Assembly: GCF_000025925.1 (NCBI RefSeq)
Contig: NC_014033.1
Coordinates: forward strand, 660,001 to 692,000
Length of the DNA: 32,000 nt
Origin: Xylanibacter ruminicola 23
GTDB taxonomy: Bacteria > Bacteroidota > Bacteroidia > Bacteroidales > Bacteroidaceae
Direction of reading: 5' to 3'
Below, in pieces: positions 2,912 to 9,111 of this stretch. Below the pieces are notes generated by a model that was given only the letters and a program-made list of their open reading frames with translations, had not been told where the DNA came from and searched no databases. Within the stretch, counting starts at the first letter, position 1. Each line of letters begins with the position of its first letter. The position numbers and the translations under genes are program-made.

Positions 2912-2953
2912 AATAAGCTATCCCCGCCAACCAGCGGGGATAGCTTATTTTCT
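2912..2953. terminator. Bidirectional intrinsic terminator between convergent trpS and the radical SAM gene
   Basis: Perfect 16-bp stem aataagctatccccgc / gcggggatagcttatt (2912-2927 and 2934-2949) with loop caacca, followed by a T-run on the plus strand. It overlaps the stop codon of the minus-strand gene. Confidence 0.75.
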
Positions 2954-4450
2954 AATCTTCTTACGAAACTCCGGCACTTGCTCTGTGGGCATCATCAGCA
3001 GGCATTCTTTGATGCTTTTTCCACCGAGTGGATCGATGCCTTGTTCCATTTGTCGGCATAGCTCCATTCGGATTTTGGCTGTCTGGCATACGTCGCCTTG
3101 TATCTCTTTCAGCGTGAAGGTGCCGTCGGGCTTCTTTTCCAAAAACTCGCCTGCATAACAAGGTGTATTGCAGTACTGGCAATAGTCGTGCCTGCCACAT
3201 GCCGTAAACGTCCGTTTTTGGTCAGTTTGAAGCATCTGCATGCGCTGGGCACTCAGGATGGTCTCCTTGAGTGATGAGTGATGCAAATTGCCATACGTGA
3301 TAGGAATATTACTGCATCCTCTTACCACTCCACTAGGCGAAATAGTTATTAGTCTGTTGGCATTACAGGGGAATCCGCTAGCGCTGCCAAATGCATAACC
3401 GTCGGCCTTCCCATCTTTAGGGATATGATTTTTGGCCAGCGGGTCCATCAGGATGATGCGCAGGGCCTCAGGCCGTGTCTGCAGATGCTCAATCATCGAC
3501 ACATCACCATCGGCACCAGGATTTAGCGTACATGAAACCTCTATCTCAGCCCCCAGTTCATAAGCTATCTTGCGTACCCCGTAATAACTGCGGGTGTTCA
3601 GACGGAAAACGGGCGTTTTAATGTTCAGGGGTACAGGCCACGCTGAGAGTTCGCGAAGCACATTCATCGACTGTTCCCATGAGCCTCGCCTACGCGTAAT
3701 CTGGTCGTGTACCTCAGCATCAGTGCTATAGATCGACACGCTGAGTTGTAGCAGCCCCATGCGGGCTATTCGGCGTATCTTCTCTTTGGTGTTTATGGCT
3801 TGGGCGTTGGTAAACAGGTTTACCGCCAGGTTACACTTGTGCATATAGTCGAGAATATCCCAGCAGTGTGGGTAGCTGAACGGGTCGCCGCCAGTAACAG
3901 TTACTTCAGGTATCCCTAAATCTACGGCTTCATCAATGATACGTTTGTAGTCGTCCATTGTCAGCATATCAGGGCGCAAGCGGTGCTCCTCATGTAAGTC
4001 GCTGCGTGCAGCCCCTTCGTTGAAGCAGTGCAGGCATCGCTCACTGCAGGCATAGGTCAGTTCAAAGTTTATCGAAACCCGTTGTTCCTGGGGTAGTGTG
4101 TCCCAATAGTCGGCTGCTGGCTCACTGCCGTTATTACTGATACATGGTGGAAAGTCCTTGCGGTATTGCTGCCACTCATCGTCGCTCCACACATGGTCGT
4201 GCACCAGTCCGATAGGTAACAGCTGTTGGCAGCAGAACTCCTCTACTTGTTCCTCTTCAGTGCCTGTCACCCAAGCGATATGTGCTGTGTTGATGGGACT
4301 TTCTCTCTCGCCCGCCAGCACCTCTTTGATCAGCAGGGCCGACACGTCATCGAATGTATAGCAAGTGCCGCGGGCCGTGTTATACATCACTGCTCTCTGT
4401 GCATGGCGATTGAATGCGCCACAGGTATATAGCGGTCGGATAAAGGTCAT
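2945..4450 (-). CDS. Radical SAM / SPASM-domain enzyme with a PqqD-like (RRE-like) N-terminal extension; putative peptide maturase
   Basis: CxxxCxxC motif (ACSERCLHC). The C-terminal Cys-rich region has CNANRLITISPSGVVRGC (Gx4C) and CGRHDYCQYCNTPC, plus later Cys residues, typical of SPASM auxiliary clusters. The N-terminal ~130 aa resembles PqqD-like peptide-binding domains. The ORF track starts at 4522. I prefer the ATG at 4450, which forms an ATGA start/stop overlap with the upstream MATE gene. Confidence 0.85.
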   Translation of the reverse strand: MTFIRPLYTCGAFNRHAQRAVMYNTARGTCYTFDDVSALLIKEVLAGERESPINTAHIAWVTGTEEEQVEEFCCQQLLPIGLVHDHVWSDDEWQQYRKDFPPCISNNGSEPAADYWDTLPQEQRVSINFELTYACSERCLHCFNEGAARSDLHEEHRLRPDMLTMDDYKRIIDEAVDLGIPEVTVTGGDPFSYPHCWDILDYMHKCNLAVNLFTNAQAINTKEKIRRIARMGLLQLSVSIYSTDAEVHDQITRRRGSWEQSMNVLRELSAWPVPLNIKTPVFRLNTRSYYGVRKIAYELGAEIEVSCTLNPGADGDVSMIEHLQTRPEALRIILMDPLAKNHIPKDGKADGYAFGSASGFPCNANRLITISPSGVVRGCSNIPITYGNLHHSSLKETILSAQRMQMLQTDQKRTFTACGRHDYCQYCNTPCYAGEFLEKKPDGTFTLKEIQGDVCQTAKIRMELCRQMEQGIDPLGGKSIKECLLMMPTEQVPEFRKKIRK

Positions 4451-6210
4451 ACCTTGTTTCGTTGATAATTCAGATAGATACAGTTGATACCGTTCATGTA
4501 CTTGTGATTGAGATTCTTGCACAAGCGCGACAGAATGGCTCGTCGCAGGTTATTCTCATCTATATCTGCAACTTCTTCATCACTATATTTATAAATCGGA
4601 TTTCGCAGAGGACCTTTGCTCTTGACTACCGCTGTGAATTCCTTTTCCTTGTCGATGATGCGCACATCAAAGGTCTCATTCGTCTTGGAATTCTGGGGCT
4701 CATGGGTCTCCACAATCTCGTAAAGCAACTCCTCCAGGGCAATATCCACAGCCATACCGTCGGGCAGTTCGCAAGCCTCAATAAATGGACGTATCTTGCC
4801 CAGAAATGTCGCTACCCCCTCGTTGGTATAAGGTATAGAGAAGGTTACAGCCGGGTTGGATGGTACTGTGTTTTGCAATGTAGGCCAACTATACAAGGAG
4901 TTCTTGCGATGAACCACATAAGCCATGCCCAGGATTACCAGCAGCAGGAGCCAGGAGGTGGTGGGCAGGGTATACCATAGGAGCTGAGGGGTATAGAAGG
5001 CCATCAGGGCAATAATGCCGATGGTGCCCAGGTTGGTCACTATTTCTATCCATCTGCATAGTTTATGATGTCCCTGTACAAAATAAAGCACGCTGAGCGT
5101 CTCGGATATGGCATTAGGTAGAAATGCCAGACTCAGAAGTCGGAACGGGGTGCGACATTCTTCTATCAGCGTGTCGTCGGCTCCAAATATCCTGGCCAGC
5201 AAATCAGGGAAAAGGAATATCAGCAGGCTAACCGTCAGCATGACTCCTGTCAACAGGCGGAATATGCGCCGTGTGAGCATGCGGAAGCTGTCGAAGTCCT
5301 CTTCGCCCAGCAGGATGCCGCCGATATTGCTGATGGCTGTATTCGAGCCAGACAATGCCAGCATACAGATGGCATTAATCTGGAAGTAGATGGTAAAGAT
5401 ATACATGCCGTCGGCACCAAGTTTGTTCACTACCAGTGAGTTCATGGTAAAAGACATGGCAGGCATAAAGAGTGCTGATATCAGCATGGGCAGTCCAATA
5501 GAAAAGCACTCACGATACTGCTTGATGCTACATATCTTCGCAGGATGCCTGAGGCGGAATATCTTACTGTTTTTGCGCAGATAGCCTAACAGCGAGGTGA
5601 ATGCGAGCAAGTTACTGATACCTGTGGCCAACGAAGCACCTGCCATCCCCATATCAAACACACCGCACAGCAGTATGTCAAACCCTACATTGAGTATCTG
5701 TGAGATGATGATGCGTCGGGTGATGAGTCGCGGACTACCGTTTGTGATGACATAGGATAAAGGTACACCGAATACAGCTGCTACGAAGATGGCAAACATG
5801 TCGGCATGAATATATGGCCGCAGCATGGGTAGCAGACGCTGGTCGTCGGTAATCAAGCCTGCCACGATATCGAGGAAAGGCAACATGAGAACAATCACCA
5901 AAAGCGCGGAGGCGATAACATAGTACAGATGATTATTGAACACACGGTTCACCTGGTCGTAGTTTTGGGCACCAATGCCTCGAGCGCTCAGAAATCTGGC
6001 CCCGGCACTCATCATTCCTATAATGATGAACATACAACTCGCAATGGGTTGCCAGATACGTACAATTGACAGCGCATCAGGTGAAACGAGATGAGATACG
6101 ACAACAGAGTCGGTAAGTCCGCCAAGTTGTAGTATCAGGGACGACATGACGGTCGCCAGGAAAAACGAACCGAACATGTTCTTCAATACATATTCATTAC
6201 GCTGCATCAT
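4447..6210 (-). CDS. MATE/MOP-family efflux transporter with an extra ~140-aa C-terminal soluble domain
   Basis: The first ~440 aa are a polytopic hydrophobic MATE-like sequence. The C-terminal tail (WPTLQNTV...NYQRNKV) is hydrophilic and absent from ordinary ~450-aa MATE proteins. It overlaps the upstream gene by 14 nt. Confidence 0.8.
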   Translation of the reverse strand: MMQRNEYVLKNMFGSFFLATVMSSLILQLGGLTDSVVVSHLVSPDALSIVRIWQPIASCMFIIIGMMSAGARFLSARGIGAQNYDQVNRVFNNHLYYVIASALLVIVLMLPFLDIVAGLITDDQRLLPMLRPYIHADMFAIFVAAVFGVPLSYVITNGSPRLITRRIIISQILNVGFDILLCGVFDMGMAGASLATGISNLLAFTSLLGYLRKNSKIFRLRHPAKICSIKQYRECFSIGLPMLISALFMPAMSFTMNSLVVNKLGADGMYIFTIYFQINAICMLALSGSNTAISNIGGILLGEEDFDSFRMLTRRIFRLLTGVMLTVSLLIFLFPDLLARIFGADDTLIEECRTPFRLLSLAFLPNAISETLSVLYFVQGHHKLCRWIEIVTNLGTIGIIALMAFYTPQLLWYTLPTTSWLLLLVILGMAYVVHRKNSLYSWPTLQNTVPSNPAVTFSIPYTNEGVATFLGKIRPFIEACELPDGMAVDIALEELLYEIVETHEPQNSKTNETFDVRIIDKEKEFTAVVKSKGPLRNPIYKYSDEEVADIDENNLRRAILSRLCKNLNHKYMNGINCIYLNYQRNKV

Positions 6211-7576
6211 ATTTTAATCTATAAACTGCCACACCTATCATCGTGAACTTGTCCTTCATAAAAGTGTAGGCATCCGTGTTTGAAAGTTCTAATCTATTTC
6301 CTGTGGCATGGTAGAAGTGCAGCCTGCCGCTGATCCATTTGGCTATCAGCAGATGCTTAATCTCCACACCTCTTGCCCAGGTATGCTGATCACACACCAC
6401 TGCCATGATGTCGCCATCGCGAATCACGCCGAGCTCCGAATCCTGCGGCATGTTCAGCAGTTCACGGGGGATATAGGTAAAGCGCACGCGCTGCTGCTGG
6501 CGAAGGGCGATGGCCTTGTAGTTGTCTTCGTCGTCCATCTGTGGGCGGAACAGGTATTTGTTTCTGGTCATATAATTCAGTTGCAGGTCCATCAGTCCCG
6601 TAAAAGGAAAGGCGGGCTCGTCGGGGCTGATACGTTCCACGAATCCCTCTTTGATGGCCGACTGCATGATCCAGGTAAAGTAATGATTGCGGGTGGCAAA
6701 CGATACGACGCCGTCCTGATAATGCATGCGCCGGTAGTAATCCTTCAGGTCTGCCAGCGTGGTGCGCCCGTCTCTGTAGCACAGTGCCAGTGCCAGTACA
6801 TCTTCTATCACGGTGGTACAATCCACATGACTAAGGCTCACCATCAGATGTTCTTCTTCCATCGGCTGAGTGAATTCTGTTGCAACGCCCTCCATCAGTT
6901 GTTGGAAGAAGTATTCAGTCGGCGGCAACGATTGATCCACGTTTTTCATCGCACGTTGCAGTATCTGCTCGTTTTGCGCGTCAAACTGCTGCTCGTTGCG
7001 TCGCAGGCGGCGGAGTAGTCTGTTATGGAAAAAACTTGTTGAGATACGGCTGAGAGGCGTCCTGATACAGAACACCAACCATAACGAGCGCAGCGCTGCC
7101 AACTGTTCGCGCCAGTAATAGGGGTTGCTCTTCACCTTCTCATAGTCGCTGATGTCAATGCCCCAGGCATCATAACCCAGCCATCGGGCAATGCGCACCG
7201 AACGGGCGATATGAAAGCTGCTGGTCAGGATGTAGAATCGGGTTTGCTTGAAAAACAAATTCATATCCCATAATGAGCGGAAGGTGTTATAGCCACAGGA
7301 GTCGAGCACAAAGCGCTCTTCAGGAATATGATATTCCTCTACCAGCGTGCGGTAGATGACGGTAGTGTCAGCACGACAACCGGAGATGTAGAACAGCCAG
7401 TCGGGATAGGTATTGGCCAGGATGCTCACCAGCCTCACCCGCAACTGCAGGATAGGCGACAGCGAGTTGTCGGGACGCAGTTTGGCACCTAACACCAGGC
7501 AGACTTTTACGCCTTCAGGCACCTGTTTGCCCTTCAGCCCCTGCAACCTGTCATGATGTAGTTTAACATACCGCAT
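6197..7576 (-). CDS. Two-domain protein: N-terminal DUF218 (YdcF/SanA/ElyC-like) fused to a C-terminal DUF1460-like (amidase/papain-like fold) domain
   Basis: The N-terminus (KVCLVLGAKLRPDNSLSP...ILTSSFHIARS) resembles DUF218. The C-terminal half (SLSHVDCTTVIEDVLALA...HLLIAKW) resembles DUF1460. Assignment is from memory of these families and is not searched. Confidence 0.65.
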   Translation of the reverse strand: MRYVKLHHDRLQGLKGKQVPEGVKVCLVLGAKLRPDNSLSPILQLRVRLVSILANTYPDWLFYISGCRADTTVIYRTLVEEYHIPEERFVLDSCGYNTFRSLWDMNLFFKQTRFYILTSSFHIARSVRIARWLGYDAWGIDISDYEKVKSNPYYWREQLAALRSLWLVFCIRTPLSRISTSFFHNRLLRRLRRNEQQFDAQNEQILQRAMKNVDQSLPPTEYFFQQLMEGVATEFTQPMEEEHLMVSLSHVDCTTVIEDVLALALCYRDGRTTLADLKDYYRRMHYQDGVVSFATRNHYFTWIMQSAIKEGFVERISPDEPAFPFTGLMDLQLNYMTRNKYLFRPQMDDEDNYKAIALRQQQRVRFTYIPRELLNMPQDSELGVIRDGDIMAVVCDQHTWARGVEIKHLLIAKWISGRLHFYHATGNRLELSNTDAYTFMKDKFTMIGVAVYRLKYDAA

Positions 7577-8093
7577 GGTCCGATTTATGTATTTTTTCTT
7601 CTATCTCATGAAGAAGAATGATCTGTTCTCTGACACTGGCAGCAAACGCATCACTGTTTTCCAGAATGTAGGCCTTCAGTTCGGCGATGTCCTGACATTT
7701 CAGATGGTGTATCACCATGAAATGCAACCCACACCCCTCGGCATGATGACCGGCACCGTCGAAAAAGGTTACTCTGCCGTCAGTAATATCTGAGTTAGAG
7801 CGTGCCCACAAGTGGAATATCCTGTTAATCGCGTTCGTCAGCGGATTGTCGGAATGGCAATAGCAAACCAGTTCGCCTGGATGCTCTTCCAGATATTGTG
7901 TAATCACCGCCACAATCATGCGCCCCACTTCCTTGTCAGGCGCACCGCCACGCATCCCGTCGGCAAGCCTGAGCACAAAGTAGAGCACGCGATGACTGCC
8001 AATCTCTGCCACCTCAATAAAATGAAGCACATAAAGACGACTCGCGGCATTGTAAAACTCCACCGCCGAATCGCCTCTTTTCCTTAACACCAA
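7563..8093 (-). CDS. Hypothetical protein (176 aa); first long gene of the operon
   Basis: The ORF overlaps the next gene by 14 nt. The only upstream in-frame starts are TTG (8093) and GTG (8090), and the first ATG is 46 codons in, so the start is uncertain. I recognise no family. Confidence 0.55.
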   Translation of the reverse strand: MVLRKRGDSAVEFYNAASRLYVLHFIEVAEIGSHRVLYFVLRLADGMRGGAPDKEVGRMIVAVITQYLEEHPGELVCYCHSDNPLTNAINRIFHLWARSNSDITDGRVTFFDGAGHHAEGCGLHFMVIHHLKCQDIAELKAYILENSDAFAASVREQIILLHEIEEKIHKSDHAVC

Positions 8094-8168
8094 TTTGGAT
8101 ATGGTGTTAATCTTCGCTATTCCTTCTTCAGATAGAGAATTCGTTGTTCTTGACTATATAAATAATAC

Positions 8169-8315
8169 CTATTTCTTATTCGTTGTTGCACAAAAACTTA
8201 CACGATCTCCATCATCTAACGTTCTCTGCACATAGTCGTCGAGATTCAGCGCCTGAGCGGTAATAATACTAACAGGTGATTTTCTGATTGCAAATGGGTT
8301 GTTTTTCTTTTCCAT
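8169..8315 (-). CDS. Unannotated 48-aa ORF; candidate precursor peptide for the downstream radical SAM operon
   Basis: My translation is MEKKNNPFAIRKSPVSIITAQALNLDDYVQRTLDDGDRVSFCATTNKK, with stop TAG at 8171-8169. It lies 61 nt downstream of a consensus -7 box and 75 nt upstream of the 176-aa gene. It is below the ORF-track length cutoff. Confidence 0.4.
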   Translation of the reverse strand: MEKKNNPFAIRKSPVSIITAQALNLDDYVQRTLDDGDRVSFCATTNKK

Positions 8316-8375
8316 ATTCTTCAAATGTTTAAGTTAAATAATAATATTCAAAAGCTTGTGCTTTAATTATTTGGG

Positions 8376-8383
8376 CAAAGATA
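8376..8383 (-). promoter_or_regulatory. Bacteroidetes -7 box (TATCTTTG) heading the small ORF and five-gene operon
   Basis: The reverse complement of caaagata is an exact TAnnTTTG match. It is the only such box between trmD and the operon. Confidence 0.5.
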
Positions 8384-8430
8384 CGAATATTTTTATGATT
8401 CATCTCGATTTTTGCGTTAATTAACATAAG

Positions 8431-9111
8431 TTAATCGCTGTCAAGCAAGTCGGGACGGAGACGGCGTGTACGCTCCATGGCCTGTTCAAATTCCCATTCG
8501 CGTATTTTTGCTTCGTTACCGCTCAGCAGTATCTCGGGCACTTTCCAACCCTTGTAGTCAGCCGGACGGGTGTAGATAGGTGCTGCCAGAATATCATCCT
8601 GGAAGCAGTCGGAGAGTGCACTCTGCTCGTCGCCAATCACGCCAGGCACCACTCTCACGATGGCATCAGCAATCATGGCTGCCACCAGCTCACCCCCAGT
8701 CAGCACAAAGTCGCCAATCGAAATCTCCTTGGTAATCAGGTGTTCACGAATACGCTGGTCGATACCTTTATAGTGGCCGGCCAATATGATCAGGTTGCCC
8801 TTCATGGAGAGGTCGTTGGCCATGTGCTGGTCGAAACGCTCACCGTCGGGCGAGGTGAATATCACTTCATCATAGTCACGCTCGGCTTTCAAGGCTGTGA
8901 TACAACGGTCGATAGGCTCGCACTGCATCACCATGCCTGCGCTGCCGCCGTATGGGTAATCATCCACGCGGCGCCATTTGTCCAATGTGTAGTCTCTCAG
9001 GTTGTGCAAACGGATTTCAGCCAGTCCCTTCTTCTCTGCTCTTGCCAGAATCGACTCGTGAACAAAGCCTTCCAACATCTCTGGCAGTACGGTTATAATA
9101 TCTATTCTCAT
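8431..9111 (-). CDS. trmD: tRNA (guanine37-N1)-methyltransferase
   Basis: 226 aa starting [12 protein letters not shown], with the typical SPOUT/TrmD sequence throughout. Its ATG forms an ATGA overlap with the patatin gene stop. Confidence 0.95.

Follow-up and report, generated by a model that had tools for sequence, protein, structure and literature searches.

Our analysis indicates that a 48-codon ORF in the window, the whole stretch of 32,000 nucleotides analysed here, is the structural gene for a RiPP precursor of rumen Prevotella that is matured by a radical SAM pathway. We put the probability of this reading at roughly 0.7. The gene lies on the minus strand, which the preliminary description had left unstated, at 8169..8315, with its ATG at 8315-8313 and its stop codon TAG at 8171-8169, and was recognised by translation and by comparison with relatives. 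Its 48-aa product contains C42 as the only Cys and lacks both Trp and a GG motif; the sequence given in the preliminary description, with its ATG start, was reproduced exactly. The predicted leader comprises approximately residues 1-31 (NPFAIRKSPVSIITAQALNLDDYVQR) and the predicted core approximately residues 32-48 (TLDDGDRVSFCATTNKK), with an invariant Cys42 and a near-invariant Thr44.

Coding evidence and promoter of the probable precursor gene

The length of the ORF alone is no proof of a gene, because 12 kb of the window are overlapped by 127 ORFs of at least 30 aa; the earlier caution that 48 codons can arise by chance was well placed. Scans of the peptide against Pfam, NCBIfam and PADLOC gave no match. 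A search of 5.8 billion proteins found 241 homologues at E<=10, all of them from rumen Prevotella/Prevotellaceae, and among the 120 matches listed the lengths were 44-77 aa, mostly 46-48 aa, with E values from 1e-15 to 1e-23. When a profile was run against 1.84 billion cluster representatives (50% identity), the family formed about 30 peptide clusters. With one genome per species, the gene is present in 19 GTDB species representatives, and all 19 species are rumen Prevotella/Prevotellaceae or unclassified Bacteroidales. The carriers include the isolates Prevotella sp. MA2016, tc2-28 and ne3005. Some NCBI/JGI records label the homologues 'hypothetical protein'. The window differs little from MA2016, with identities of 100% for TrmD, 97.5% for the radical SAM enzyme and 92% for the peptide. 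One match to the core, from the repetitive 1033-aa protein P0122, came through 'DGDRASICATV' repeats and was rejected as spurious.

The preliminary description had proposed that conservation of the ORF, and synonymous versus nonsynonymous change within it, be checked in related genomes, and on both points the comparison favours a gene. Pooled dN/dS was 0.13 over 25 leader codons, which indicates purifying selection. When the leader of the window was compared with those of the distant loci L028, L029 and L030, pS was 0.81-0.93 (saturated) and pN 0.12-0.28. Variable columns in the 25 leader codons fall at 11 first, 7 second and 25 third codon positions, and the reading frame and the position of the stop codon are kept across the 19 species. 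Synonymous divergence of the leader is slightly lower than that of the neighbouring gene p176, a comparison with too few sites for interpretation. Because of the low dN/dS, the synonymous saturation, the distribution of variable columns and the 241 homologues, the ORF is almost certainly a real, conserved coding gene. A chance ORF, or a conserved element that is a non-coding RNA or regulatory region, draws on the mere 48 codons and on a window rich in short ORFs, but it is refuted by the substitution pattern, in which distant relatives keep the amino acids at saturated synonymous sites and vary at all third positions in a preserved frame, and its probability is negligible. A non-coding RNA is also disfavoured by an Rfam scan of 7900-8600, which gave no match, and by the fold of the peptide 3' end and the downstream spacer to p176, the sole stretch folded, which was not significant (z = -1.0). 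No terminator was placed in this spacer by a terminator scan. For these last two reasons we do not claim an attenuator.

A scan for sigma-70 promoters is uninformative for Bacteroidetes, and the TAnnTTTG box was used instead. This consensus is an established feature of Bacteroides promoters. A Bacteroidetes-type -7 box of this form, TATCTTTG, lies at 8376..8383 (minus strand), 68 nt upstream of the ATG, and a TAnnTTTG-type box was found 46-81 nt before the peptide ATG in 16 of 16 loci at several chromosomal sites. This bears out the earlier statement that the peptide gene is the first ORF after the promoter. Further upstream, a perfect 10-bp palindrome, GTTAATTAAC, occupies 8416..8425 with a further ATTAAC half-site beside it at 8430-8435. 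The palindrome region is about 40 nt upstream of the -7 box and overlaps the trmD stop. Other loci have TTAAC half-sites in the equivalent place, for example as TTAACACAAATTAAC in L017 and L021 and as GTTAATTAAC in L001, L010 and L014. Palindrome and half-site together are possibly an operator.

Constant leader and hypervariable core

About 31 N-terminal residues of the peptide are nearly invariant, and the tail is hypervariable. In an alignment of 40 peptides, N6, P7, F8, I10, R11, K12, S13, P14, I18, Q21, A22, D26, Y28 and C42 are invariant. With the most distant members included, the leader follows the motif NPF-x-I-[RK]-K-SP..II.AQA..LDDY[VL]. The tails after DDYV-x-[RK] are unrelated between classes (about 30 clusters at 50% identity), as illustrated by TLDDGDRVSFCATTNKK in the window and by GEFGTDFHCRSGVLDGTSKK, GSWESGCVKSGVCPSSAKK, FIGRSCQGDYLPCITGE and GEKEGGPSTICNGTLL elsewhere. 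Cys is present in 127 of 129 unique tails, and the two Cys-less tails look frameshifted or truncated. All 30 divergent cores have their last Cys at a distance of 3-11 residues from the C-terminus. Ser or Thr occupies position +2 of this Cys in 67% and position +3 in 33% of these cores; 26 of the 30 have it at one position or the other, compared with 7.9 expected from composition, and none of 20,000 permutations reached the observed count (p<5e-5). Besides the Cys, Ser/Thr at +2/+3 is the sole feature kept across the core classes.

The leader/core organisation that had been read from this one ORF therefore holds for the whole family, with its constant leader, hypervariable tail and invariant Cys. 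The boundary had been placed after ...LDDGD, and the comparison moves it to after DDYVQR, at about residue 31; the stretch TLDDGDRVS already differs between classes. The Asp, Thr and Asn residues that flank the Cys had all been named as acceptor types. Thr44 stands up as a candidate, as the Ser/Thr at +2/+3 is kept across classes, but the Asp and Asn are not conserved outside the core class of the window.

A constant leader joined to a hypervariable core is a textbook hallmark of RiPP precursor families. The substitution rates fit this pattern, with the conserved leader set against a variable core: core codons 32-44 have a dN/dS of about 1.5 among orthologues of the window's class, a value from few sites. 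Tandem paralogues, two or three in number, share a common leader and carry different cores in L001, L003, L010, L014-L016 and L030. On this comparative evidence the 48-aa peptide is most likely a RiPP precursor. An orphan member of the family occurs at L039 8001-8156, with the core LDLDASIKCTSAKGPIIEK. A PfkB kinase gene comes after it, and its contig has no p176, radical SAM or MATE gene.

Operon partners and their arrangement across loci

The gene order on the minus strand is peptide, p176, DUF218/AmiA-like fusion, MATE and radical SAM/SPASM enzyme. The overlaps are 14 nt between p176 and the fusion, 14 nt between the fusion and MATE, and 4 nt (ATGA) between MATE and the radical SAM gene; since successive genes overlap in this way, we regard them as one operon. 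The length, position and composition of the ORF had been judged to fit a precursor, and the RRE-bearing radical SAM/SPASM enzyme encoded in the operon agrees with that judgement.

The predicted radical SAM/SPASM maturase is encoded at 2945..4450 (minus strand) and was assigned from Pfam, a structure model and homologues. Its start is taken as the ATG at 4450, giving 501 aa, because homologues show that start. In the model (pLDDT 90), residues 9-77 form an N-terminal beta3-alpha3 domain with RRE architecture. The enzyme carries the signature of a radical SAM/SPASM maturase, a CxxxCxxC motif and a C-terminal seven-Cys SPASM. The motif (C135/C139/C142) and the SPASM residues C362, C379, C418, C424, C427, C431 and C455 do not vary across 35 sequences, which reach down to 30% identity. 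The Pfam Radical_SAM domain was found at E 1e-20; SPASM, at E 0.005, is under the gathering score here and is called in homologues. Among the best 25 of 45 matches the enzyme reaches no NCBIfam cut-off, the best being TIGR04053 with 97 bits against 395. Its structural neighbours in the PDB are SkfB (top, E 1.9e-12), SuiB including its SuiA complex, CteB, TigE, EpeE and anSME, and SkfB is also the second-best sequence match in the PDB. The modelled fold does not fix the reaction: its neighbours include the C-C crosslinking SuiB, TigE, the epimerase EpeE and anSME. Radical SAM/SPASM homologues with 30-39% identity occur in other Bacteroidales (Muribaculaceae and others), at L031 3864-6515 and L033 7001-9653, where they pair with a conserved uncharacterised protein of 287-289 aa; L031 also has a 49-aa Cys-rich ORF. 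These loci seem to form a RiPP-like cluster type of their own, likewise undescribed, and the homologues were rejected as informants on the present system.

The gene for p176 (7563..8093, minus strand) has a TTG start and encodes an orphan protein of 176 aa. It comes next after the precursor gene or genes in every complete cluster, and its 99 clusters of homologues are all from the same organisms as the peptide. Comparison with Pfam, NCBIfam and PADLOC gave no family, and sequence and profile searches of the PDB gave nothing meaningful. His34, His124, Cys133 and a G-K-R-G-G loop are invariant, and Cys77, His80 and His94 are nearly so. The structure model (pLDDT 81) gave weak, recurrent matches to GNAT-like folds in Foldseek (4qc6, E 3e-3, TM 0.36; BFVD N-acetyltransferases, TM 0.44-0.47). 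With TM values of 0.36-0.47 and no sequence-family match, membership in GNAT was not accepted. Weak matches to DUF6169 in 10 of 30 homologues (best E 0.0011) were also set aside and say nothing on function. At 8094-8150 (minus strand), the 17-19 codons before the TTG still encode the extension, conserved at the N-terminus, of the 193-aa homologues (SEEGIAKINTISK). The start codon of this longer form is ACG in the window and TTG in the homologues; the extension is either untranslated in this strain or begun at a non-canonical codon.

The third gene (6197..7576, minus strand) encodes a fusion of 459 aa, in which Pfam places DUF218 at residues 25-137 and an AmiA-like/DUF1460 NlpC-P60 amidase at 237-457; the PF07313 match is 70.8 bits against a cut-off of 27. 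Alignment with 2p1g and 4h4j shows that VDCTT, the His of 'IKHLLIA' and the His of 'FYHAT' are kept, which corresponds to the Cys-His-His triad defined for DUF1460 NlpC/P60 amidases (PMC10318531). No signal peptide was found in the fusion. It may be a leader peptidase; the distant clusters L030 and L037 lack it, so it cannot be the universal one. The MATE-family exporter (4447..6210, minus strand; Pfam) has an extra C-terminal domain of about 135 aa. This domain, residues ~455-587 at 4450-4850 of the window (minus strand), is presumably cytoplasmic. It has a weak match to HATPase_c_2, which is anti-sigma-factor kinase-like (E 0.014), is conserved in all cluster MATEs, and persists as a fusion in decayed clusters.

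Peptide, p176 and MATE are found in every complete cluster, and the position of the radical SAM gene differs between loci. It is downstream of MATE in the window and in L005-L009, L019, L020, L023, L025 and L026, and upstream of the peptide in L010, L013, L014 and L016. Among the deeply divergent clusters, L030 and L037/38 have the order peptide(s)-p176-radical SAM-MATE without an amidase, and L036 has all five genes in another order. An RRE-bearing maturase is thus co-located with the precursor in most loci, not all. A remnant of the radical SAM gene, only 56 residues, is left in L003, L004 and L012. No radical SAM gene is nearby in L001/L002, L015, L017 and L021, which have an intact peptide with its Cys, p176, the fusion and MATE. 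L021 is the isolate Prevotella sp. ne3005; it has the trmD-trpS site of the window, and its MATE-trpS gap is just 42 nt. The contigs of P0133 and P0148 are too short to show gene context.

L035 and P0146 are decayed clusters. At L035 8198-8837 a deletion joins p176 residues 1-76 to the MATE C-terminal domain, with an intact precursor upstream, and in P0146 a deletion joins the leader peptide to the same MATE domain. In L010 (6245-9819 and 10001-13999) and L016 (340-8111), two sub-clusters stand in tandem after trmD, in the order peptide3-MATE-radical SAM / peptide1-peptide2-p176-amidase-MATE. The first has a two-Cys precursor (GSWESGCVKSGVCPSSAKK), a 25-residue remnant of p176, MATE and the radical SAM gene; the second brings two further precursors together with p176, the amidase fusion and another MATE. 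A single radical SAM enzyme apparently acts on three different cores in this arrangement. At L037 320-723 and L038 1391-1794, two GG-motif Bacteroidetes peptides lie just upstream of a distant cluster member, with leaders ending ...LGQVTGG and ...LDQVTGG and with Cys-containing cores. They may be a second precursor type at that locus.

The loci that lack the enzyme bear directly on its role. The radical SAM gene belongs to the ancestral state of the system, because the three deeply divergent clusters (L030, L036 and L037/38) all have it, and its loss or decay is confined to the clade of the window, where the peptide leader and Cys stay intact. Its absence from intact loci means that the enzyme acts in trans or that the peptide works without it, with p176 and MATE alone. 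Since the leader is conserved in loci without a radical SAM gene, the comparison suggests that something besides the RRE of the enzyme, perhaps p176, also reads the leader. A different explanation of the system is that the peptide is a secreted signal or bacteriocin for which p176 and MATE are essential, with the radical SAM enzyme contributing optional tailoring or nothing at all. The C-x-S/T could then be modified as a lanthionine-like ring, by acylation through a GNAT-like p176, or as a disulfide-linked dimer. The presence of p176 and MATE in every complete cluster and the intact peptides of all loci in which the radical SAM gene is missing or decayed are consistent with this, and so are the invariant or near-invariant His and Cys residues and Gly-rich loop of p176 and its recurrent, weak GNAT-like matches. 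However, those fold matches have low TM values, a dehydratase is absent, and the radical SAM gene belongs to the ancestral set. The loci without it come from a single clade in which some clusters are decaying (L035, P0146), and the radical SAM gene of L010 and L016, placed between two peptide sub-clusters, shows that the enzyme can serve non-adjacent peptides. We consider this explanation unlikely, roughly one chance in five or six, and prefer a precursor matured by the radical SAM enzyme.

Predicted maturation and relation to known systems

For the preferred radical SAM pathway we propose the following order of events. The RRE of the radical SAM/SPASM enzyme would bind the leader through NPF-x-IRKSP and the helix II.AQA..LDDYV, and the enzyme would modify the core at the invariant Cys42. 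That it acts on the 48-aa peptide is probable. The likeliest product would be an intramolecular thioether to Thr44, the Ser/Thr at +2/+3, which would close a very small C-terminal ring. This bond is proposed because Cys thioethers are known products of SkfB, AlbA, CteB, Tte1186, PapB and QhpD, and CteB and Tte1186 use Thr as the acceptor (PMC10352776). By this analogy, a Cys-to-Ser/Thr thioether specifically is a tentative assignment, a little short of even odds. The leader would then be removed, in the clade of the window perhaps by the amidase domain of the DUF218 fusion, with its NlpC/P60-type Cys-His-His triad, and MATE would export the product across the inner membrane. p176 would join the maturation by leader binding or by a second modification. 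It is the most interesting component of the system, because it is the most constant partner.

A bolder reading is a new RiPP class of rumen Prevotella, in which the defining step would not be a classical sacti- or ranthi-thioether. p176, which lacks a family and a clear relative by fold, would be a new maturation enzyme that depends on the leader and works on a minimal C-x-S/T close to the C-terminus, and the radical SAM step would come second and be dispensable. The DUF218/NlpC-P60 fusion, cytoplasmic and similar to muropeptide amidases, might then tie the peptide to cell-wall fragments or be a new leader peptidase. We think such a class improbable, slightly more so than the secreted peptide discussed above. 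Less probable again, at well under one chance in ten, is a small protein that is not exported and serves as an intracellular regulatory, adaptor or antitoxin-like subunit for p176 or for the MATE C-terminal domain. The peptide is always tightly paired with p176, the extra cytoplasmic domain of MATE resembles, weakly, an anti-sigma-factor kinase, and a recognisable cleavage motif such as GG is lacking. Such a subunit does not account for a constant N-terminus with hypervariable, possibly diversifying tails, for tandem paralogues with one leader and different cores, or for the presence of a radical SAM/SPASM enzyme with an RRE among the ancestral genes, all of which agree with a RiPP precursor.

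The predicted RiPP pathway can be compared with several known systems. SCIFF and other ranthipeptides (CteB, Tte1186; also PapB, QhpD and NxxC-type) likewise combine a short precursor with an RRE-radical SAM-SPASM enzyme and have a conserved Cys near a Thr/Ser acceptor candidate, and CteB is among the best structural neighbours of the enzyme. Maturases of the CteB and Tte1186 type make thioethers from Cys to the gamma-carbon of Thr. Unlike SCIFF, which has six Cys in about 45 residues, the core here has one Cys and rarely two, a Cys-to-Ser/Thr spacing of +2/+3 and an unrelated leader; the hosts are Bacteroidota instead of Clostridia, and the partners are p176, the DUF218/NlpC-P60 fusion and MATE. 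The peptide matches neither TIGR03973 nor another precursor model, and no SCIFF maturase is found in the best 25 of 45 matches of the enzyme. The sactipeptide maturases SkfB and AlbA share with the enzyme an RRE, a radical SAM core and auxiliary clusters, and they build a thioether from a single Cys, to which the bond proposed here would be a putative counterpart. SkfB has a Twitch domain whereas the enzyme has a full SPASM, and with the AlbA model, whose cut-off is 850, the enzyme reaches 66.7 bits. The precursors of the SkfB and AlbA systems are unrelated, and their export and protease sets are different.

The streptococcal RaS-RiPPs (streptide/SuiB; tryglysin WgkABCD) also have a small precursor gene first, an RRE-radical SAM-SPASM enzyme and a dedicated exporter, and SuiB is among the best structural neighbours. 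The tryglysin MATE exporter WgkD matches the MATE of the window weakly, at 35.7 bits against a cut-off of 510, and WgkB scores 49 bits against 650; both values are far below those expected of tryglysin members. Unlike in streptide and tryglysin, the core lacks Lys/Trp or a WGK motif, there is no adjacent shp/rgg-type regulator, and the host is Gram-negative. GG-motif Bacteroidetes peptides with radical SAM/SPASM enzymes, which we take to be of the TIGR04149 type, show a similar RiPP-like pairing in Bacteroidales. In contrast to that family, the peptide has no GG, no match to an NCBIfam precursor model and a wholly different leader. As judged from its genes, the system functions as radical SAM RiPP pathways do, and it falls outside the SCIFF, sactipeptide, tryglysin and GG-Bacteroidetes sequence models.

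The family is not described in the mining of Bacteroidales or in that of the Hungate1000 collection, which includes isolates carrying the peptide gene (PMC10352776, PMC13289728). What is gained is a family of precursors in which a conserved leader is combined with dozens of natural cores around a minimal C-x-S/T, together with a dedicated radical SAM enzyme, the orphan p176 and carriers in culture (MA2016, tc2-28 and ne3005). The natural variants without a radical SAM gene offer a ready genetic comparison. Prevotella, dominant in the rumen and abundant in many guts, have to our knowledge yielded hardly any small modified peptides. Characterisation of this system could give a new crosslink or enzyme, or a peptide whose signalling or antagonistic role matters for the ecology of the rumen.
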